The notes beneath the pieces were generated by a model. That model searched no databases. It saw nothing but the letters and a program-made list of their open reading frames with translations, and had not been told where the DNA came from. The translations under genes and the position numbers were made by a program. DNA of 64,000 nucleotides from Patescibacteria group bacterium (GTDB lineage Bacteria; Patescibacteriota; Microgenomatia; Levybacterales; UBA12049), in the NCBI GenBank assembly GCA_038064195.1, contig JBBTTO010000003.1, positions 178,428 to 242,427 on the forward strand, in the 5' to 3' direction. Shown here in pieces: positions 4,250 through 55,864 of the stretch; position 1 is the stretch's first letter, and every line of letters begins with the position of its first letter.

Positions 4250-4353
4250 TGTGACCCGCTCGGCGGGTGAGGCGAGATGTGAGGGGTGAGGAGCGTAAGC
4301 TCCGAGCCCCTTTTTTCGTGCTTATGAATTGTGTTCAGAGGAGTCACCCCGCA

Positions 4354-15640: not shown

Positions 15641-16420
15641 ATGAAAGTTACAAAGTTTATCATGGGGATGCCGATCATCGTTGAAGTAGTTGACCGGAGT
15701 GTTTTGAAAAAAGATTTAGAGGAAGTTTTTGCCTGGTTTCGTCGTGTTGACCGGCAGTTTAGTCCTTATAAAAAAACGAGCGAGGTCTCACGTTTGAATC
15801 GTAAAGAAATTACTTTTGCTCAAGCTTCAGCTGAGATGCGGGAGGTTTTGGTTTTGGCAGAGAAGGCCAAGCAGGAGACTCAGGGCTATTTTGATGTTAC
15901 AGCCCGCGGCTTTTTCGATCCTTCAGGGATTGTTAAGTCCTGGGCAATTGAGAAAGCCTCTCAATTATTACAAGAGAAAGGCTTAGCTCGCTTTTATATC
16001 AATGCCGGAGGAGATATCCAGGTCAGCGGGAGAAATGCACAGGACGCAGACTGGCTTGTCGGTATCCGTCATCCTTTTATACAGGATAAGATCGTCAAAA
16101 CAGTCAGAATACCTGGGGCGATTGCGACCTCGGGGACATATCTGCGCGGCGATCATATCTATGATCCACACCGGAAGGGGATCCTGAAACCAGCTTCCGC
16201 AAGGGACTACCTCTTGAGAGGGGCGCAGGATGACAACCTAGTCAGTCTGAGTGTTATTGCCGGGGATATTGTAACAGCAGACGTTCTGGCGACAGCCTCA
16301 TTTGCGATGGGGAGGAGCGGGATTATGTTTTTAGAAAAAACAGCAGATGTGGAGGGGTATATGATTGATAGGCAGGGAACGGCGACATACACAACTGGGT
16401 TTGAAAAATACGTTGTGTAA
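15641..16420 (+). CDS. apbE: FAD:protein FMN transferase (ApbE/Ftp family)
   Basis: The N-terminal FIMGMPIIVEV (MGT-type), the ARGFFDPSGIVKSWAIEKA region and the C-terminal TSGTY, GDHIYDP are ApbE hallmarks. No signal peptide or lipobox is present. Confidence 0.75.
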   Translation: MKVTKFIMGMPIIVEVVDRSVLKKDLEEVFAWFRRVDRQFSPYKKTSEVSRLNRKEITFAQASAEMREVLVLAEKAKQETQGYFDVTARGFFDPSGIVKSWAIEKASQLLQEKGLARFYINAGGDIQVSGRNAQDADWLVGIRHPFIQDKIVKTVRIPGAIATSGTYLRGDHIYDPHRKGILKPASARDYLLRGAQDDNLVSLSVIAGDIVTADVLATASFAMGRSGIMFLEKTADVEGYMIDRQGTATYTTGFEKYVV

Positions 16421-16480
16421 GTCTAGAAGACAGAATTAAGTATATTGTATACAGAATAAAAAGATAAAGAATAATCTTAC

Positions 16481-16508
16481 TTAATACTTAATACTTAATA
16501 CTTAATAC
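16481..16508. repeat. Tandem heptamer (ttaatac) x4 abutting the ATG of the membrane oxidoreductase gene
   Basis: Read directly: ttaatac ttaatac ttaatac ttaatac aaac ATG. Confidence 0.9.
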
Positions 16509-16512
16509 AAAC

Positions 16513-18033
16513 ATGCTTAATTTTATTGATTCATATCTCGATCGGATTACGATGTACAGGCTTGTCTTGTATTATCTGATCGTCTTGCTCGGAGCGGCTT
16601 TCCTATTGAGTCTCTTAGGCATTCTCAACTATAATCCACTCGGGATTTTATTTAACAGTATTTTTCTGGTCGTTATCTGTTATATCACCAATAGAGTTTT
16701 TGCCTCAGTTTTTAAGGCTCCGACCAACGTCGAGTCTGTCTATATTACATCTCTCATTCTCGCCTGTATCATCACGCCTTTTAAGAGTCTGCAGGATTTG
16801 CCGATGCTCGGCTTTGCGGCTGTGTTGGCAGTCTCATCCAAATATATCTTGGCCATCAAGAAAAAACATATTTTCAATCCCGTGGCGATTGCTGTCGTCC
16901 TGACGGCTTTCGGCTTTGGGGTCTCAGCGAGCTGGTGGATCGGGAACGCCTGGATGACGCCTTTTATCGTACTTGGCGGACTACTCGTCATGCGTAAAAC
17001 GAGACGCGAGCATATGGTCTTCATGTTTTGGGCAGTTGCGTTGGCTGTGATTTCCATTTTTACCCTTATTGATGGTAACTCATATGTCTTGATGCTTGAT
17101 CAGGTCTTCCTCCATTCGTCATTTTTCTTTTTTGCTTTTCTCATGTTCACCGAGCCGCTCACGACTCCGCCGACACGAAGTCTGCAGCTGATGTATGCGG
17201 TCCTCATCGGTCTCCTTTTCCCGCCTCAAGTTCATCTGGGAAGCTGGTATACCACGCCTGAGCTGGCACTTGTCATCGGCAATGTTTTTGCCTATCTGAT
17301 CAGCCCTCGGCAAAAGTTCGTCATGCTTCTCTCAGAAAAATTGCAAATCGCCCCTGATATCATGGATTTTGTTTTCAAGCCTCCTGAACGCCTCCGCTAT
17401 TCAGCAGGTCAGTACTTCGAATGGACTTTTCAACACCCCCAGACCGACAGCCGGGGGAACAGGCGCTATTTTACACTTGCATCAAGTCCGACAGAAGATA
17501 CACTTCGGATCGGGGTCAAATTTTATGAAGGCGGCAGCAGTTACAAAAAATCACTGCAAAAAATGGATGAGAAAGTACCGATTGTTGCTGCACAGCTGGC
17601 AGGAGAGTTCATTTTGCCTAATGATAAGACAAAAAAACTGGTTTTTGTGGCAGGAGGTATCGGAGTGACCCCTTTTAGGAGTATGCTCAAATATCTTATC
17701 GATACGAAAGAAAAGCGGGATATTATCGTCCTTTTCTCCAATAAATATGAGTCGGATATTGTCTATAAAGATATTTTGGATCAGGCAGAACGTGAACTCG
17801 GGATCAGAACTGTTTACACACTGACCGATACTGATAAAATTTCACCGACTTGGACAGGGGAGAAAGGAAGAATTTCCTCTGAGATCATCCAGAAAAATAT
17901 TCCTGACTGGAGAGAACGATTTTTTTATCTTTCGGGTCCGCATGCGATGGTCGTGGGTTTTGAGACGACGCTCAGGCAAATGGGACTGCCGGCATCACTT
18001 ATTAAAAAGGATTTCTTTCCGGGATTTGTATAA
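16513..18033 (+). CDS. Polytopic membrane domain (about 270 aa) fused to a C-terminal ferredoxin-NADP reductase-like FAD/NAD(P)-binding oxidoreductase domain
   Basis: About 6-7 hydrophobic helices at the N-terminus. The C-terminus has RYFTLASSP (RxYS FAD motif) and GGIGVTPF (NAD(P) motif). No Cys cluster, so no Fe-S centre. Confidence 0.65.
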   Translation: MLNFIDSYLDRITMYRLVLYYLIVLLGAAFLLSLLGILNYNPLGILFNSIFLVVICYITNRVFASVFKAPTNVESVYITSLILACIITPFKSLQDLPMLGFAAVLAVSSKYILAIKKKHIFNPVAIAVVLTAFGFGVSASWWIGNAWMTPFIVLGGLLVMRKTRREHMVFMFWAVALAVISIFTLIDGNSYVLMLDQVFLHSSFFFFAFLMFTEPLTTPPTRSLQLMYAVLIGLLFPPQVHLGSWYTTPELALVIGNVFAYLISPRQKFVMLLSEKLQIAPDIMDFVFKPPERLRYSAGQYFEWTFQHPQTDSRGNRRYFTLASSPTEDTLRIGVKFYEGGSSYKKSLQKMDEKVPIVAAQLAGEFILPNDKTKKLVFVAGGIGVTPFRSMLKYLIDTKEKRDIIVLFSNKYESDIVYKDILDQAERELGIRTVYTLTDTDKISPTWTGEKGRISSEIIQKNIPDWRERFFYLSGPHAMVVGFETTLRQMGLPASLIKKDFFPGFV

Positions 18034-18207
18034 TAATTTTTCTCTTGACCCCTCTCCTAATAGGAGAGGGTGGTACCGCTTGCGGAGGGTGAGGTTTAGG
18101 TTGCCTCTTTGCAATTTCTAAACAAATATGGTTTAGTGGGGGAATAATCTTGGGAGGCTTGCCCTCCGAAGCCTGACCTCATAGGGTTAATGCAAATTAA
18201 AGTGAGG

Positions 18208-18259
18208 AACGAAACCCGCCTTCGCTAAAGCTATGGCGGGCGAAGGGGGGTGATAGATA
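18208..18259 (+). promoter_or_regulatory. Conserved 5' leader RNA motif, copy A (aacgaaacccgcc-loop-ggcgggcgaagggggg) in front of the cupredoxin gene
   Basis: Near-identical core to 44279-44349. The stem cccgcc/ggcggg encloses a variable loop and the SD-like GGGGGG follows. Confidence 0.5.
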
Positions 18260-18721
18260 ATGAATAGTAAAATTCTTATAGCTGCTGTTGTACTCCTGGT
18301 AGTACTTGGTACAGGAGTGTATCTTTTGACAAAGAATTCGACCACGACTGCACCTGTCCCTGTTGCGACTCCTACACCGACAACTGCGGCTATCGAGGAG
18401 ACTCCGACAGCAGCACCGTCGGAGGCGATGACAAAGACATCAGGAACAGTCAAAGAGATCACCGTGACCGGTTCATCTTTCAAATTTGTCCCGGCTACGA
18501 TTTCTGTGAAAAAGGGGGACACGGTCAAAGTCACCTTTGTGAACTCGGGCGGCTCGCATAACTTTGTAATTGACGAATTCAGTGTCTCAACCAAGGTTAT
18601 TGCCAGTGGGCAGTCAGAGACTGTCAGTTTTGTGGCTGATAAAGTAGGAACGTATGAATACTACTGCACTGTGGGTAACCACAGGCAAAAGGGTATGGTG
18701 GGCAAACTCATAGTGCAATAA
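18260..18721 (+). CDS. Cupredoxin-fold (type-1 blue copper) protein, membrane-anchored
   Basis: N-terminal TM anchor and a Thr/Pro-rich linker. His in GGSHNF and C-x4-H-x4-M (YYCTVGNHRQKGM) are azurin/plastocyanin-like copper ligands. Confidence 0.65.
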   Translation: MNSKILIAAVVLLVVLGTGVYLLTKNSTTTAPVPVATPTPTTAAIEETPTAAPSEAMTKTSGTVKEITVTGSSFKFVPATISVKKGDTVKVTFVNSGGSHNFVIDEFSVSTKVIASGQSETVSFVADKVGTYEYYCTVGNHRQKGMVGKLIVQ

Positions 18722-27147: not shown

Positions 27148-27179
27148 CTCGAACAAATCCGTTCCGCCCCCCAACCAAT

Positions 27180-27206
27180 GCCCGCCCCGAGTCATTCGGG
27201 GCGGGC
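27180..27206 (+). terminator. GC-rich hairpin gcccgccccga-gtcat-tcggggcgggc after the secreted protein gene
   Basis: 11-bp perfect stem read directly. Weak U-tract. Confidence 0.5.
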
Positions 27207-27270
27207 AACCGTACACTTGATTCGTCTCCAGTTGAATTATAGGCTCCACTAGGTATATAATCCTCTCACT

Positions 27271-28156: not shown

Positions 28157-28347
28157 GTCAATGTTTTATCCTACATATGGAGTTACCCTATTATCTGAAT
28201 ATTATCCTATAATATGGTATAATTCCTGATATTACAGGAACGGCGTGACAGTTTTTTGCAGTTATGTTCGTGCCTGTTTTATTTTTTCCTGCCTGTCGGC
28301 AGGCAAGTCGTACATTGATATCGAACTAGAATACGCACAGGCTCGCC

Positions 28348-44065: not shown

Positions 44066-44278
44066 CTGACTACTGACAACTAATATCTAATTACATACTA
44101 TATCTCTTGACGCGCTCATCTATATGTGAGTAGAGTAATAGTAATGCCCGTTCACTTGGGCTTTGGTATAGCCCGCAGACAGATTAATGTTTCCGGCAGG
44201 GATTTCACTGTAACTCCTCATCGAGGAGGGGGACTCCTTTTTCTTCAAAATTTTTTCCGACGAAACATACATATTACA

Positions 44279-44349
44279 AAACGAAACCCGCTTTCGTTAA
44301 CCCCGATTGAATTGGGGTTAAAACTACGGCGGGCAAAGGAGGTGAGAAT
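44279..44349 (+). promoter_or_regulatory. Conserved 5' leader RNA motif, copy B, in front of the DUF378 gene
   Basis: aacgaaacccgct-[hairpin ccccgattgaattgggg]-acggcgggcaaaggagg. Same core as 18208-18259. Confidence 0.5.
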
Positions 44350-44544
44350 ATGAAATCATTATTTATGGTAGCTACATGGCTTCTTGTTGTTGGCGGGTTG
44401 CTTTGGGGATATATGGGCGTAACTAATACCGATCTCCTTACTAACACTGTTGGCACGGGAGTTGCTGATATAGTTGAAGTCTTAGTCGGACTTTCAGCTG
44501 TTTGGGTCGGATACGTCATGCTTACCGGTAAGAAAATGAAGTAA
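44350..44544 (+). CDS. DUF378-family small membrane protein
   Basis: LLVVGGLLWGYMGVTNTDLL matches the DUF378 LNWGLVG-type motif. 2 TM helices. Confidence 0.55.
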   Translation: MKSLFMVATWLLVVGGLLWGYMGVTNTDLLTNTVGTGVADIVEVLVGLSAVWVGYVMLTGKKMK

Positions 44545-54813: not shown

Positions 54814-55065
54814 AATTGTTCAGGGGATTGTATACTAATAAGATCCTATAGTCAACTCCGACTTGCGTTTCGTCTAAAGCTTCGGCCAGCCTCGCCGTCC
54901 ACCTCGGATCAACCGAGTCGAGACGGGAGTCTAGGCGGGCAAGGCGAGTTGAATCGAAGTCAAAGATACTTTTTAGGGCTCAATATCAGGGTGTGATAGA
55001 AATCACATACGGGAATTTATCTTAAGCATAAGATATCCATTATGGGAGGATTGGGGATTGAAGGT

Positions 55066-55327: not shown

Positions 55328-55864
55328 ATGGCAGATAAAAAATTCATTATCATAGTTGCAATAATCACCTTAGTTATCATGCTTGGTGGTATTGCTTTGG
55401 TTAATAGTTCTTCGTCAACTCCTCAAATTTTGAGCTCAGAAAACGCCCGCCTGCAATTGTCTTCGCAAAGCGATGGCGGGCAGGCAAAAGCGGAAACAGT
55501 AGAACCAACAAGCTATGATTGGGGAAACATTTCGTATAGTGGTACTAAGGCAACAAAGACATTTGCTATCAGGAATACGGGAAGTGATCCTCTCAAGCTC
55601 TTTAATGTTAAAACCTCTTGTCATTGTACGAAAGCGCATGTAACAATTGATGGGAAAGACAGCCCAGATTTTGGAATGAGTGGTATTTCCAGCTGGGCAG
55701 GAGAAGTCCCCGTCGGTAAAGAAGCAAAAGTAACTGTTATTTTTGATCAAGCATTTCATGGCCCACAAGGTATTGGTCCCATTACCCGTTTTGTTTCCAT
55801 AGAAACAAATGATAGAGGTACTCCGAAGATTACATTTACGCTTACAGGAACCGTTGTAAAATGA
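55328..55864 (+). CDS. DUF1573-domain secreted protein
   Basis: TM anchor. FAIRNTGSDPLKLFNVKTSCHCT is the DUF1573 (TSC-x-CT) signature. Confidence 0.65.
   Translation: MADKKFIIIVAIITLVIMLGGIALVNSSSSTPQILSSENARLQLSSQSDGGQAKAETVEPTSYDWGNISYSGTKATKTFAIRNTGSDPLKLFNVKTSCHCTKAHVTIDGKDSPDFGMSGISSWAGEVPVGKEAKVTVIFDQAFHGPQGIGPITRFVSIETNDRGTPKITFTLTGTVVK

Follow-up and report, generated by a model that had tools for sequence, protein, structure and literature searches.

What does it mean when two unrelated genes carry the same small hairpin in their leaders? The question arises in a 64-kb stretch, hereafter the window, of the genome of a Patescibacteria group bacterium of the Levybacterales, the source habitat of which is Hainich groundwater (GenBank assembly GCA_038064195.1, contig JBBTTO010000003.1, positions 178,428 to 242,427 of the forward strand). 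Here, closely similar palindromes precede a gene for a membrane-anchored cupredoxin (copy A) and a gene for a small DUF378 membrane protein (copy B); both palindromes lie on the plus strand, as do the promoters, Shine-Dalgarno (SD) sequences and genes associated with them. An initial annotation, made from the letters of the DNA, had seen in the pair a structured cis-regulatory RNA. Our analysis agrees with a genuine structured element, but not with a gene-specific leader: with a probability of about 0.7, copies A and B belong to a dispersed palindromic mini-insertion, the local effect of which would be that of a stable stem-loop by the SD, without ligand sensing. The two leaders would then be alike because two copies of the insertion arrived, or were kept, between promoter and SD of two unrelated genes, both in sense orientation.

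A palindromic element of 30 nucleotides

The resemblance of the two leaders, as first annotated, is real. Exactly two matches to the 17-mer AACGAAACCCGCYTTCG exist in the window, both of them on the plus strand (18208-18224 and 44280-44296), against a chance expectation of 0.37 matches in shuffled sequence with three mismatches allowed, and GGCGGGCRAAGGRGG is found downstream of it in both copies (18235-18249 and 44328-44342). Both leader regions fold far below shuffled controls (z about -3.7). Scored with R1, a covariance model built from 98 members of the element family described below and used for the window as well as for genome loci, copy A reaches 50.2 bits (E = 9e-9) and copy B 33.8 bits (E = 3e-5), which establishes their membership in this family. 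Since both are identical across 14 independent assemblies of the organism, they are not an assembly artefact. Within the 64 kb of the window, to which the search for copies in the organism's own genome was confined, R1 finds nothing else above 17 bits; a weak, diverged relative on the plus strand, CGCCCGCC-TGCAATTGT-CTTCGCAAAGCGAT-GGCGGGCAGGC at 55443-55483, is of uncertain membership (16.8 bits, E = 0.15).

Copy A spans 18215-18244. In its predicted fold, CCCGCC (18215-18220) pairs with GGCGGG (18235-18240) to form a stem, P1, which encloses a loop (18221-18234) with two inner pairs, G18224-C18231 and C18225-G18230, around UAAA, and is followed by the tail CGAA (18241-18244). The 5' flank CGAAA (18210-18214), which by alignment is common to all copies of the Levybacteria type, repeats the 3' tail CGAA(G), and the same CGAAA forms the unit junction in tandem arrays. 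In copy B (44287-44337), P1 is predicted between CCCGCT (44287-44292) and GGCGGG (44328-44333), with a closing U-G pair and the tail CAAA (44334-44337). The C-to-T change between the copies thus leaves the stem intact, as had been proposed, and in a contig encoding a 92%-identical DUF378 protein (L016) the corresponding pair is U-A. The additional hairpin described for the loop of copy B, TTAACCCCGATTGAATTGGGGTTAA (44297-44321), is likewise present and extends a real inner stem, but its 11-bp helix is near-perfect rather than perfect, with one G-U pair. This nested insertion lengthens the 2-bp inner stem by 21 nt in total and was seen only in contigs of this organism. Not all of the shared 3' sequence can be counted as motif, however, as part of it (AAGGRGGTGA) is simply the SD.

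No Rfam family matches the element, either in a gathering-threshold scan of the window or in scans of both leaders at E<=10; the best sub-threshold match overlapping it is CRISPR-DR28 (14.4 bits, E = 7), and a gathering scan of ten multi-copy loci of the family with Rfam 15 returned tRNAs only. The original statement that no known riboswitch class is recognizable therefore stands. Searching the literature in full text for the DNA words, for the encoded peptides and for repetitive extragenic palindromic (REP) sequences in Patescibacteria, we found no account of the element. Two further structures were considered and rejected. The sequence CGAAAC followed by a stem recalls the core of a hammerhead ribozyme, but there is no CUGAUGA near the copies, the stem is followed by C-G-A and not by U-H, and no hammerhead family of Rfam matches; an H-type pseudoknot between UUCG of the loop and the 3' CGAA is excluded by geometry, as it would leave zero linker nucleotides. 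Sequences resembling a hammerhead core, GCGAAACCCGCCTTCGGGCGGGTC ... CTGATGAGCAGCC, do occur in two viral contigs (L068, 1267-1340 and 6506-6580; L071, 52-125), and a scan of viral contigs with a 15-mer yielded 93 matches, all of them chance hairpins, terminators or hammerhead-like cores.

Dispersal across genomes and within genes

How far does the family extend? Species-representative genomes were scanned with a pattern anchored on the 5' half of the motif, which returned mostly chance matches, and metagenomes with the loop-centred core CCTTCGYTAAARCTWYGGCGG, which returned at least 128 copies in at least 120 contigs with a GC content of 0.34-0.72; the latter sample is unbiased with respect to the flanks, its contigs carrying no taxonomy. 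The resulting plus-strand consensus, Y-CCGCC-TTCG-Y-TAAA-R-CT-W-C-GGCGG-R-CARG, comprises 30 nt, or ten codons, and is predicted to fold into a 6-bp GC stem, a conserved 14-nt loop and a 2-bp inner stem. In the genome scan, copies with the same loop appeared in contigs labelled Levybacteria or Levyibacteriota (L134, L166, L221), Paceibacteria (L122) and Bacteroidota (L120, L142, L169), and looser variants in Saccharibacteria, Verrucomicrobia, Sumerlaeia and a Burkholderiaceae genome, with R1 scores of 33-52 bits across all these groups. Dispersal across phyla is plainest in a 2.2-Mb contig of the Chitinophagaceae (L142), which is identical to the Levyibacteriota contig L166 over 38 nt.

The stems of these copies covary. 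The outer pair is C-G in 42 copies, U-A in 34 and U-G in 6, the inner pair C-G in 83 and U-A in 11; these are the stem pairs left free by the search pattern, and the covariation rests on two pairs because the retrieval patterns fixed most stem positions. Overall, 93.5% of the cells are paired, and the covariation score was reached by 0 of 500 shuffles. Many homologues with covariation, the lack of which would have spoken against the initial annotation, do exist. Mismatches affect one stem pair in 25% of the copies, which suits repeats in decay better than an aptamer under constraint. On its 3' side, the loop reads U[A/U]CG in 111 of 127 copies; conservation extends to the 3' tail CARG (C 77%, A 61%, A or G 84%, G 61%); the 5' flank is random.

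Neither orientation nor context ties the element to a particular kind of gene. By our crude gene calls, and among the matches listed, the downstream gene is in sense orientation for 29 copies and in antisense orientation for 27. Some loci hold several copies: L122 carries a tandem array of 3.3 units with a period of 33, and L169, L254, L268 and L351 contain complex arrays or multiple copies. An association with tRNAs was considered, 8 of the 128 copies listed lying within 60 nt of one, and judged to reflect intergenic location only. In two contigs (L297, 1497-1587; L348, 638-732), the element and a tRNA-Gly gene on the opposite strand overlap, the 5' arm of the former sharing the first bases of the latter, so that the element stem includes the 5' strand of the tRNA acceptor.

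T-runs after some copies, following tRNA-Ser in L278 and L304 and also present in L256, would suit an ordinary intrinsic terminator, and the 5' half of copy B is a DNA palindrome, AACGAAA-N5-TTTCGTT, as might be expected of an operator for a transcription factor. That either of these explains the motif strikes us as highly improbable: T-rich tails are found after only 10 of 127 copies, 2 in the plus and 8 in the reverse-complement orientation, the two copies of the window lack a T-run on either strand and both lie within leaders, downstream of promoters, and the spacing of the stem arms differs by 21 nt between A and B, which fits a hairpin formed by nucleic acid and not a palindrome bound by protein.

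About a fifth of the copies lie inside long open frames. Among the matches listed, stretches of at least 60 open codons border 27 of 128 copies on either side, compared with 249 of 600 random positions; the element is thus depleted in genes, but far from excluded. As gene calls were based on open reading frames (ORFs) and are crude, a location inside an ORF is trusted only where Pfam domains flank the element. This was the case for all ten in-ORF copies that were checked, each of which lies in a real gene with domains on both sides, encoding SecA, GluRS, a class I aminoacyl-tRNA synthetase, a class II ribonucleotide reductase, PEP synthase, HsdM, a CopA-type ATPase, a GH97 protein, an ATP-grasp protein and a MiaB-like radical-SAM enzyme. 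The element reads as [S/P]AFAKA[T/S]A[D/G]K on one strand (for example SAFAKATADK) and as L[S/P]A[E/V]ALAKA[D/G] on the other (for example LSAEALAKAD; once ARRSFSEGG), and it is tolerated because its length is divisible by three and stop codons are absent from four of its six frames. Aligned to sequences from the PDB, the CopA and PEP synthase proteins show a gap of 8-9 residues exactly at the element. Homologues of the CopA protein at 80-81% identity lack it, and excising exactly 30 nt, CCCACCTTCGCTAAAGCTACGGCGGGCAAG, restores their Trp-Pro; no duplication is seen between these filled and empty sites, which are too diverged for a clear target-site comparison.

Two observations on in-gene sites may be added. 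In L273 (679-800), the radical-SAM domain of a MiaB/RimO-like gene contains, in frame, a 33-nt tandem array that encodes repeats of SATFVKATADE. In P0198, a CopA homologue from Patescibacteria, a different insertion, YAAEAMEGKPIDA, occupies the surface loop in which L285 has the element, suggesting that this loop is an insertion hot spot or that the insert of P0198 is a related element.

What remains, then, of a ligand-sensing riboswitch, in which the loop would be an aptamer controlling two genes of one regulon, for instance in response to a metal? Conserved loop nucleotides and covarying stems are what such an RNA would display, the nested hairpin of copy B could pass for a variable insert at the stem tip, the copies adjoin the SD, and no known Rfam family matches. 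However, this sequence is found in either orientation, in arrays, beside tRNAs and, translated, inside essential genes, without a consistent gene association over 128 copies among the matches listed; many copies have stem mismatches, the loop has merely 14 nt, and the element is absent from orthologous leaders, as described next. We therefore regard a riboswitch as very unlikely.

The two leaders and the placement by the Shine-Dalgarno sequence

If the element is an insertion, relatives of the two genes should tell how much of each leader it accounts for. The cupredoxin gene (18260-18721; PF13473, 9.6e-14; PF00127, 1.4e-13) is preceded by the SD region GAAGGGGGGTGA (18242-18253), and its SD/start motif, GGTGATAGATAATG, is kept in orthologues. 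A promoter is recognizable by conservation at 18109-18137, with the -35 box TTGCAA (18109-18114), a 17-nt spacer containing TG and the -10 box TTTAGT (18132-18137). It is kept in five orthologous loci, among them L355, L356, L358 and L359, and is followed by leaders of about 30 to about 190 nt; the relatives also keep the order of the genes, FMN_bind, ApbE, RnfD/FNR-like, cupredoxin. From this conservation, transcription probably starts near 18144, giving a leader A of about 116 nt, shorter than the 180-220 nt ascribed to both leaders originally. The stretch between promoter and SD is about 100 nt long in the window, with the motif at its end. In L358 and L359, whose cupredoxins are 68% and 62% identical, it measures about 30 nt and lacks a hairpin; L355 (81%) has a degenerate variant of the motif adjoining the SD, and L356 (77%) has other hairpins between promoter and SD. 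As these stretches differ so much among orthologues, the motif is a lineage-specific insertion in a variable leader and not an ancestral part of it.

The leader of the DUF378 gene (44350-44544; PF04070, 4.9e-9) offers a similar comparison, the homologues found numbering only four. Its SD, AGGAGGTGA (44337-44345, with the start codon at 44350), is the same in orthologues without the element, and a promoter-like site, TTGACG-18-TAGAGT, was located by consensus scan at 44107-44136. This promoter box, together with the start of an upstream ORF, GTAATGCC, is kept in L017, L019 and L023. In L016, the motif is present, with its U-A closing pair and a loop of the A type, in a leader that is otherwise unrelated; in the homologues L017 to L023 (72-83% identity) it is absent, the 5' part of the L017 leader being the same as in the window. 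Both genes downstream encode membrane proteins, in line with the initial annotation. One argument from that annotation has to be corrected: the absence of an ORF across copy A had been taken to favour RNA over coding sequence, yet at copy B a small ORF (44144-44353, from an ATG at 44144) reads through the motif, the nested 21 nt keeping its frame and its TGA overlapping the ATG of the DUF378 gene. In L019 and L023, the small ORF upstream of the DUF378 gene encodes a membrane peptide of 39-49 residues. Leader B also contains, between the predicted promoter and the element, a terminator-like hairpin with a T-run (GAGGAGGGGGACTCC, 44214-44246), for which L017 has homologous sequence, and in L016 the word CCTGCC, one of several GC-rich words considered below, precedes the element.

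The position of the copies within the leaders deserves separate consideration. All six copies of the Levybacteria type (A, B, L016, L134, L166 and L221) are in sense orientation with the end of the stem 16-20 nt before a start codon, and the variant in L355 is also sense and equally placed; in all of them the junction reads CGAAA, hairpin, CGAAG-G(SD). The CGAA repeats flanking this subtype are ambiguous, being explicable as a duplication or as the junction of repeat units. Furthermore, since the 3' tail CGAAG is complementary to CUUCG in the loop, two folds compete: P1/P2, which leaves the SD free, and a shifted helix, in which it is paired. In copy A, the predicted shifted helix (18214-18251) pairs ACCC (18214-18217) with GGGU (18248-18251) and CCUUCGCU (18219-18226) with GGCGAAGG (18239-18246), burying most of the SD, the bases of which have a mean predicted unpaired probability of 0.38. 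It is the predicted fold of minimum free energy (MFE) in copy A (-24.0 kcal/mol, against -14.2 with P1 enforced), L166 (-24.9 against -13.6), L221 (-22.4 against -14.1) and L134 (-17.3 against -15.1). For copy B and L016, the predicted MFE fold is P1 itself, at -24.4 kcal/mol with the SD free and at -16.9 kcal/mol with the SD largely free (three of eight bases paired), respectively. As a fold of the whole family the shifted register was rejected, since P1 is the more stable of the two in 111 of 127 copies. With the SD predicted to be sequestered in four copies, including A, a local effect on translation is plausible, if unproven.

In pairing the SD in their most stable fold, copy A and the three other Levybacteria copies resemble SD-sequestering leaders such as riboswitch platforms and RNA thermometers. 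They differ from these in lacking an aptamer-like conservation tied to a gene and in that the masking helix is not common to A and B; for a thermometer, the helix of copy A, at -24 kcal/mol, is also far too stable. Copy B, a stable hairpin just 5' of a free and strong SD, is instead reminiscent of 5' stabilizer stem-loops.

Several observations nonetheless weigh against a dispersed insertion in its simple form, and they concern both its mobility and its placement. No copies were found in 72,556 plasmids and 50,697 phages that would account for a route between phyla; the arrays have no transposase beside them, their neighbours being housekeeping genes; and neither a target-site duplication nor a pair of empty and filled sites of high identity was found. 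We thus infer mobility from the distribution of the element. With 2 copies in 64 kb and 0 in the roughly 40 kb covered in related genomes, the element is scarce by the standard of a classical REP, and the covariation may in part reflect subfamily structure rather than many independent events, by which the counts can be inflated. As to placement, an SD and a start codon follow the element in six of six copies of the Levybacteria type versus 1 of 128 in the general sample (among the matches listed), always in sense, and the five independent genes downstream all have membrane or secreted products: the cupredoxin, DUF378, a 64-aa membrane protein, a camelysin-like secreted protein and an MscS-like protein. 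A placement so far from random could indicate that the copies were co-opted for regulation and not passively inserted.

Such co-option is most concretely formulated as a translational switch, derived from the repeat and domesticated in Levybacteria, which would alternate between P1/P2 and the SD-masking helix, the balance being set by a trans factor, for instance a protein or RNA recognizing the conserved loop, or by co-transcriptional kinetics. Besides the placement and the kind of genes downstream, the mutually exclusive registers, with masking as the MFE fold in A, L166, L221 and L134, speak for it, as does the retention of the element between the window and L016 despite the difference in the rest of the leader. 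However, the MFE fold of copy B and L016 is P1 with a free SD, so that a common switch logic is not conserved; orthologues function without the element; the sample is small, with five independent genes; and the placement could equally arise from a GAAAGGAGG-like target preference or from the few neutral sites in the short leaders of these candidate phyla radiation (CPR) bacteria. The SD-adjoining placement may thus reflect either a target preference (GAAA^GGAGG) or selection, and we hold the switch to be possible but on the doubtful side.

We accordingly favour the dispersed mini-insertion, for which the following course of events can be proposed. Chromosomes of many bacterial lineages, most of them uncultivated and among them Patescibacteria and Bacteroidota, harbour the element, which may have spread by a hairpin-dependent mechanism acting in trans, as for REP sequences and the palindromic elements of Rickettsia. 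In the window, both copies would be transcribed within the 5' UTR. In copy A, where the shifted register is predicted to be the more stable, the SD would be masked and cupredoxin translation dampened; in copy B, the SD would stay free and the hairpin at most protect the mRNA. The effect would in either case be that of a stable stem-loop by the SD, ligand sensing not being involved. A gene-specific regulatory leader is not supported, given the even split of orientations, the arrays, the copies inside genes and the orthologues without the element. In the Levybacteria lineage, a local cis effect may still exist.

Some further features of the window may be noted. The cupredoxin belongs to a module (15641-18721) common to several relatives, including L356 and L359, which consists of FMN_bind, the flavin transferase ApbE, a 506-aa fusion of an RnfD/NqrB-like membrane domain with a FAD/NAD-binding reductase, and the membrane-anchored cupredoxin itself, and which may constitute an extracytoplasmic electron-transfer unit. 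Between the stop codon of the RnfD/FNR-like gene and the cupredoxin promoter, a hairpin, CCCCTCTCCTAATAGGAGAGGG followed by GGTACCGCTTGCGGAGGGTGAGG (18048-18096), weakly matches the Rfam family whalefall-1 (20.5 bits, with a gathering threshold of 37) and is near-identical in L356; it could be a terminator, or else one more GC-rich repeat. Further GC-rich intergenic hairpin words, GTTTCGTCTAAAGCTTCGGCCAG, CCTGCCTGTCGGCAGGCAAG, CCCGCTCGGCGGGTGAGG and others, are found at 54866-54948, 28285-28306, 4252-4290 and 27178-27208, and the genome seems to hold several such small GC-rich repeat families.

Relation to known repeats and significance

Where does the element stand among the small repeats of bacteria? 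REP sequences are extragenic, species-specific palindromes of high copy number, with a GTAG head, usually paired as REP doublets forming hairpins (REPINs) and linked to REP-associated tyrosine transposases (RAYTs). They share with the element the build of a 20-40-nt imperfect, GC-rich palindrome with a conserved tetranucleotide by the stem, CARG on its 3' side in our case, which is CYTG on the 5' side when read on the other strand, and they occasionally act as terminators or mRNA stabilizers. The element differs in its low copy number (two in 64 kb), in its presence in genes and in having the same sequence across phyla, and no RAYT was seen in the neighbourhoods of its arrays.

Rickettsia palindromic elements (RPEs) are, together with REP sequences, the closest known kind. 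They are about 100-150 bp long and, to our knowledge, confined to Rickettsia and close relatives, whereas the element has 30 nt and occurs in several phyla, labelled Patescibacteria and Bacteroidota; similarity to RPEs in sequence is not to be expected. RPEs are palindromic repeats that fold into hairpins and lie between genes as well as in frame within unrelated housekeeping genes, to which they add a short peptide while leaving the protein intact (PMC10969869). The element likewise is palindromic and hairpin-folding, occurs in frame in unrelated conserved genes and between genes, and lacks a transposase of its own. PARCELs (palindromic amphipathic repeat coding elements) are coding repeats of palindromic sequence, distributed horizontally among diverse microbes and readable on either strand (PMC2996958). 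The element resembles them in being palindromic, readable on either strand and spread among diverse microbes, and differs in that PARCELs are longer, intragenic tandem repeats of surface proteins, while it is a single 30-nt unit and mostly intergenic. [quoted passage not shown] The element is similarly small, non-autonomous and structured, and may likewise alter the expression of a neighbouring gene, but neither the length nor the AT-richness, the terminal inverted repeats or the duplication of a MITE is seen.

A more ambitious scenario would join all these aspects, namely an as yet undescribed family of 30-nt mini-insertions that crosses phyla, spreads in a hairpin-dependent way, is tolerated in frame, and was domesticated in Levybacteria as a bistable control element next to the SD of envelope genes; we put this forward tentatively, considering it rather improbable in its entirety. 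Irrespective of it, a false riboswitch candidate is removed, and what the two leaders have in common is an insertion and not a regulon. Compared with RPEs, the element is far shorter; its sequence is near-invariant across very distant phyla, and it sits inside SecA, aminoacyl-tRNA synthetases and ribonucleotide reductase, apparently without breaking these genes. If confirmed genome-wide, it would offer a tractable case for studying how an ultra-short palindrome moves within and between genomes, would explain odd Ala/Lys-rich insertions and spurious ORFs in metagenome annotations, and would serve as a warning to motif-discovery pipelines that covariation and conserved loops alone do not make a regulatory RNA. 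The copies adjoining the SD in Levybacteria, in turn, bear on whether selfish hairpins are recruited to tune translation.

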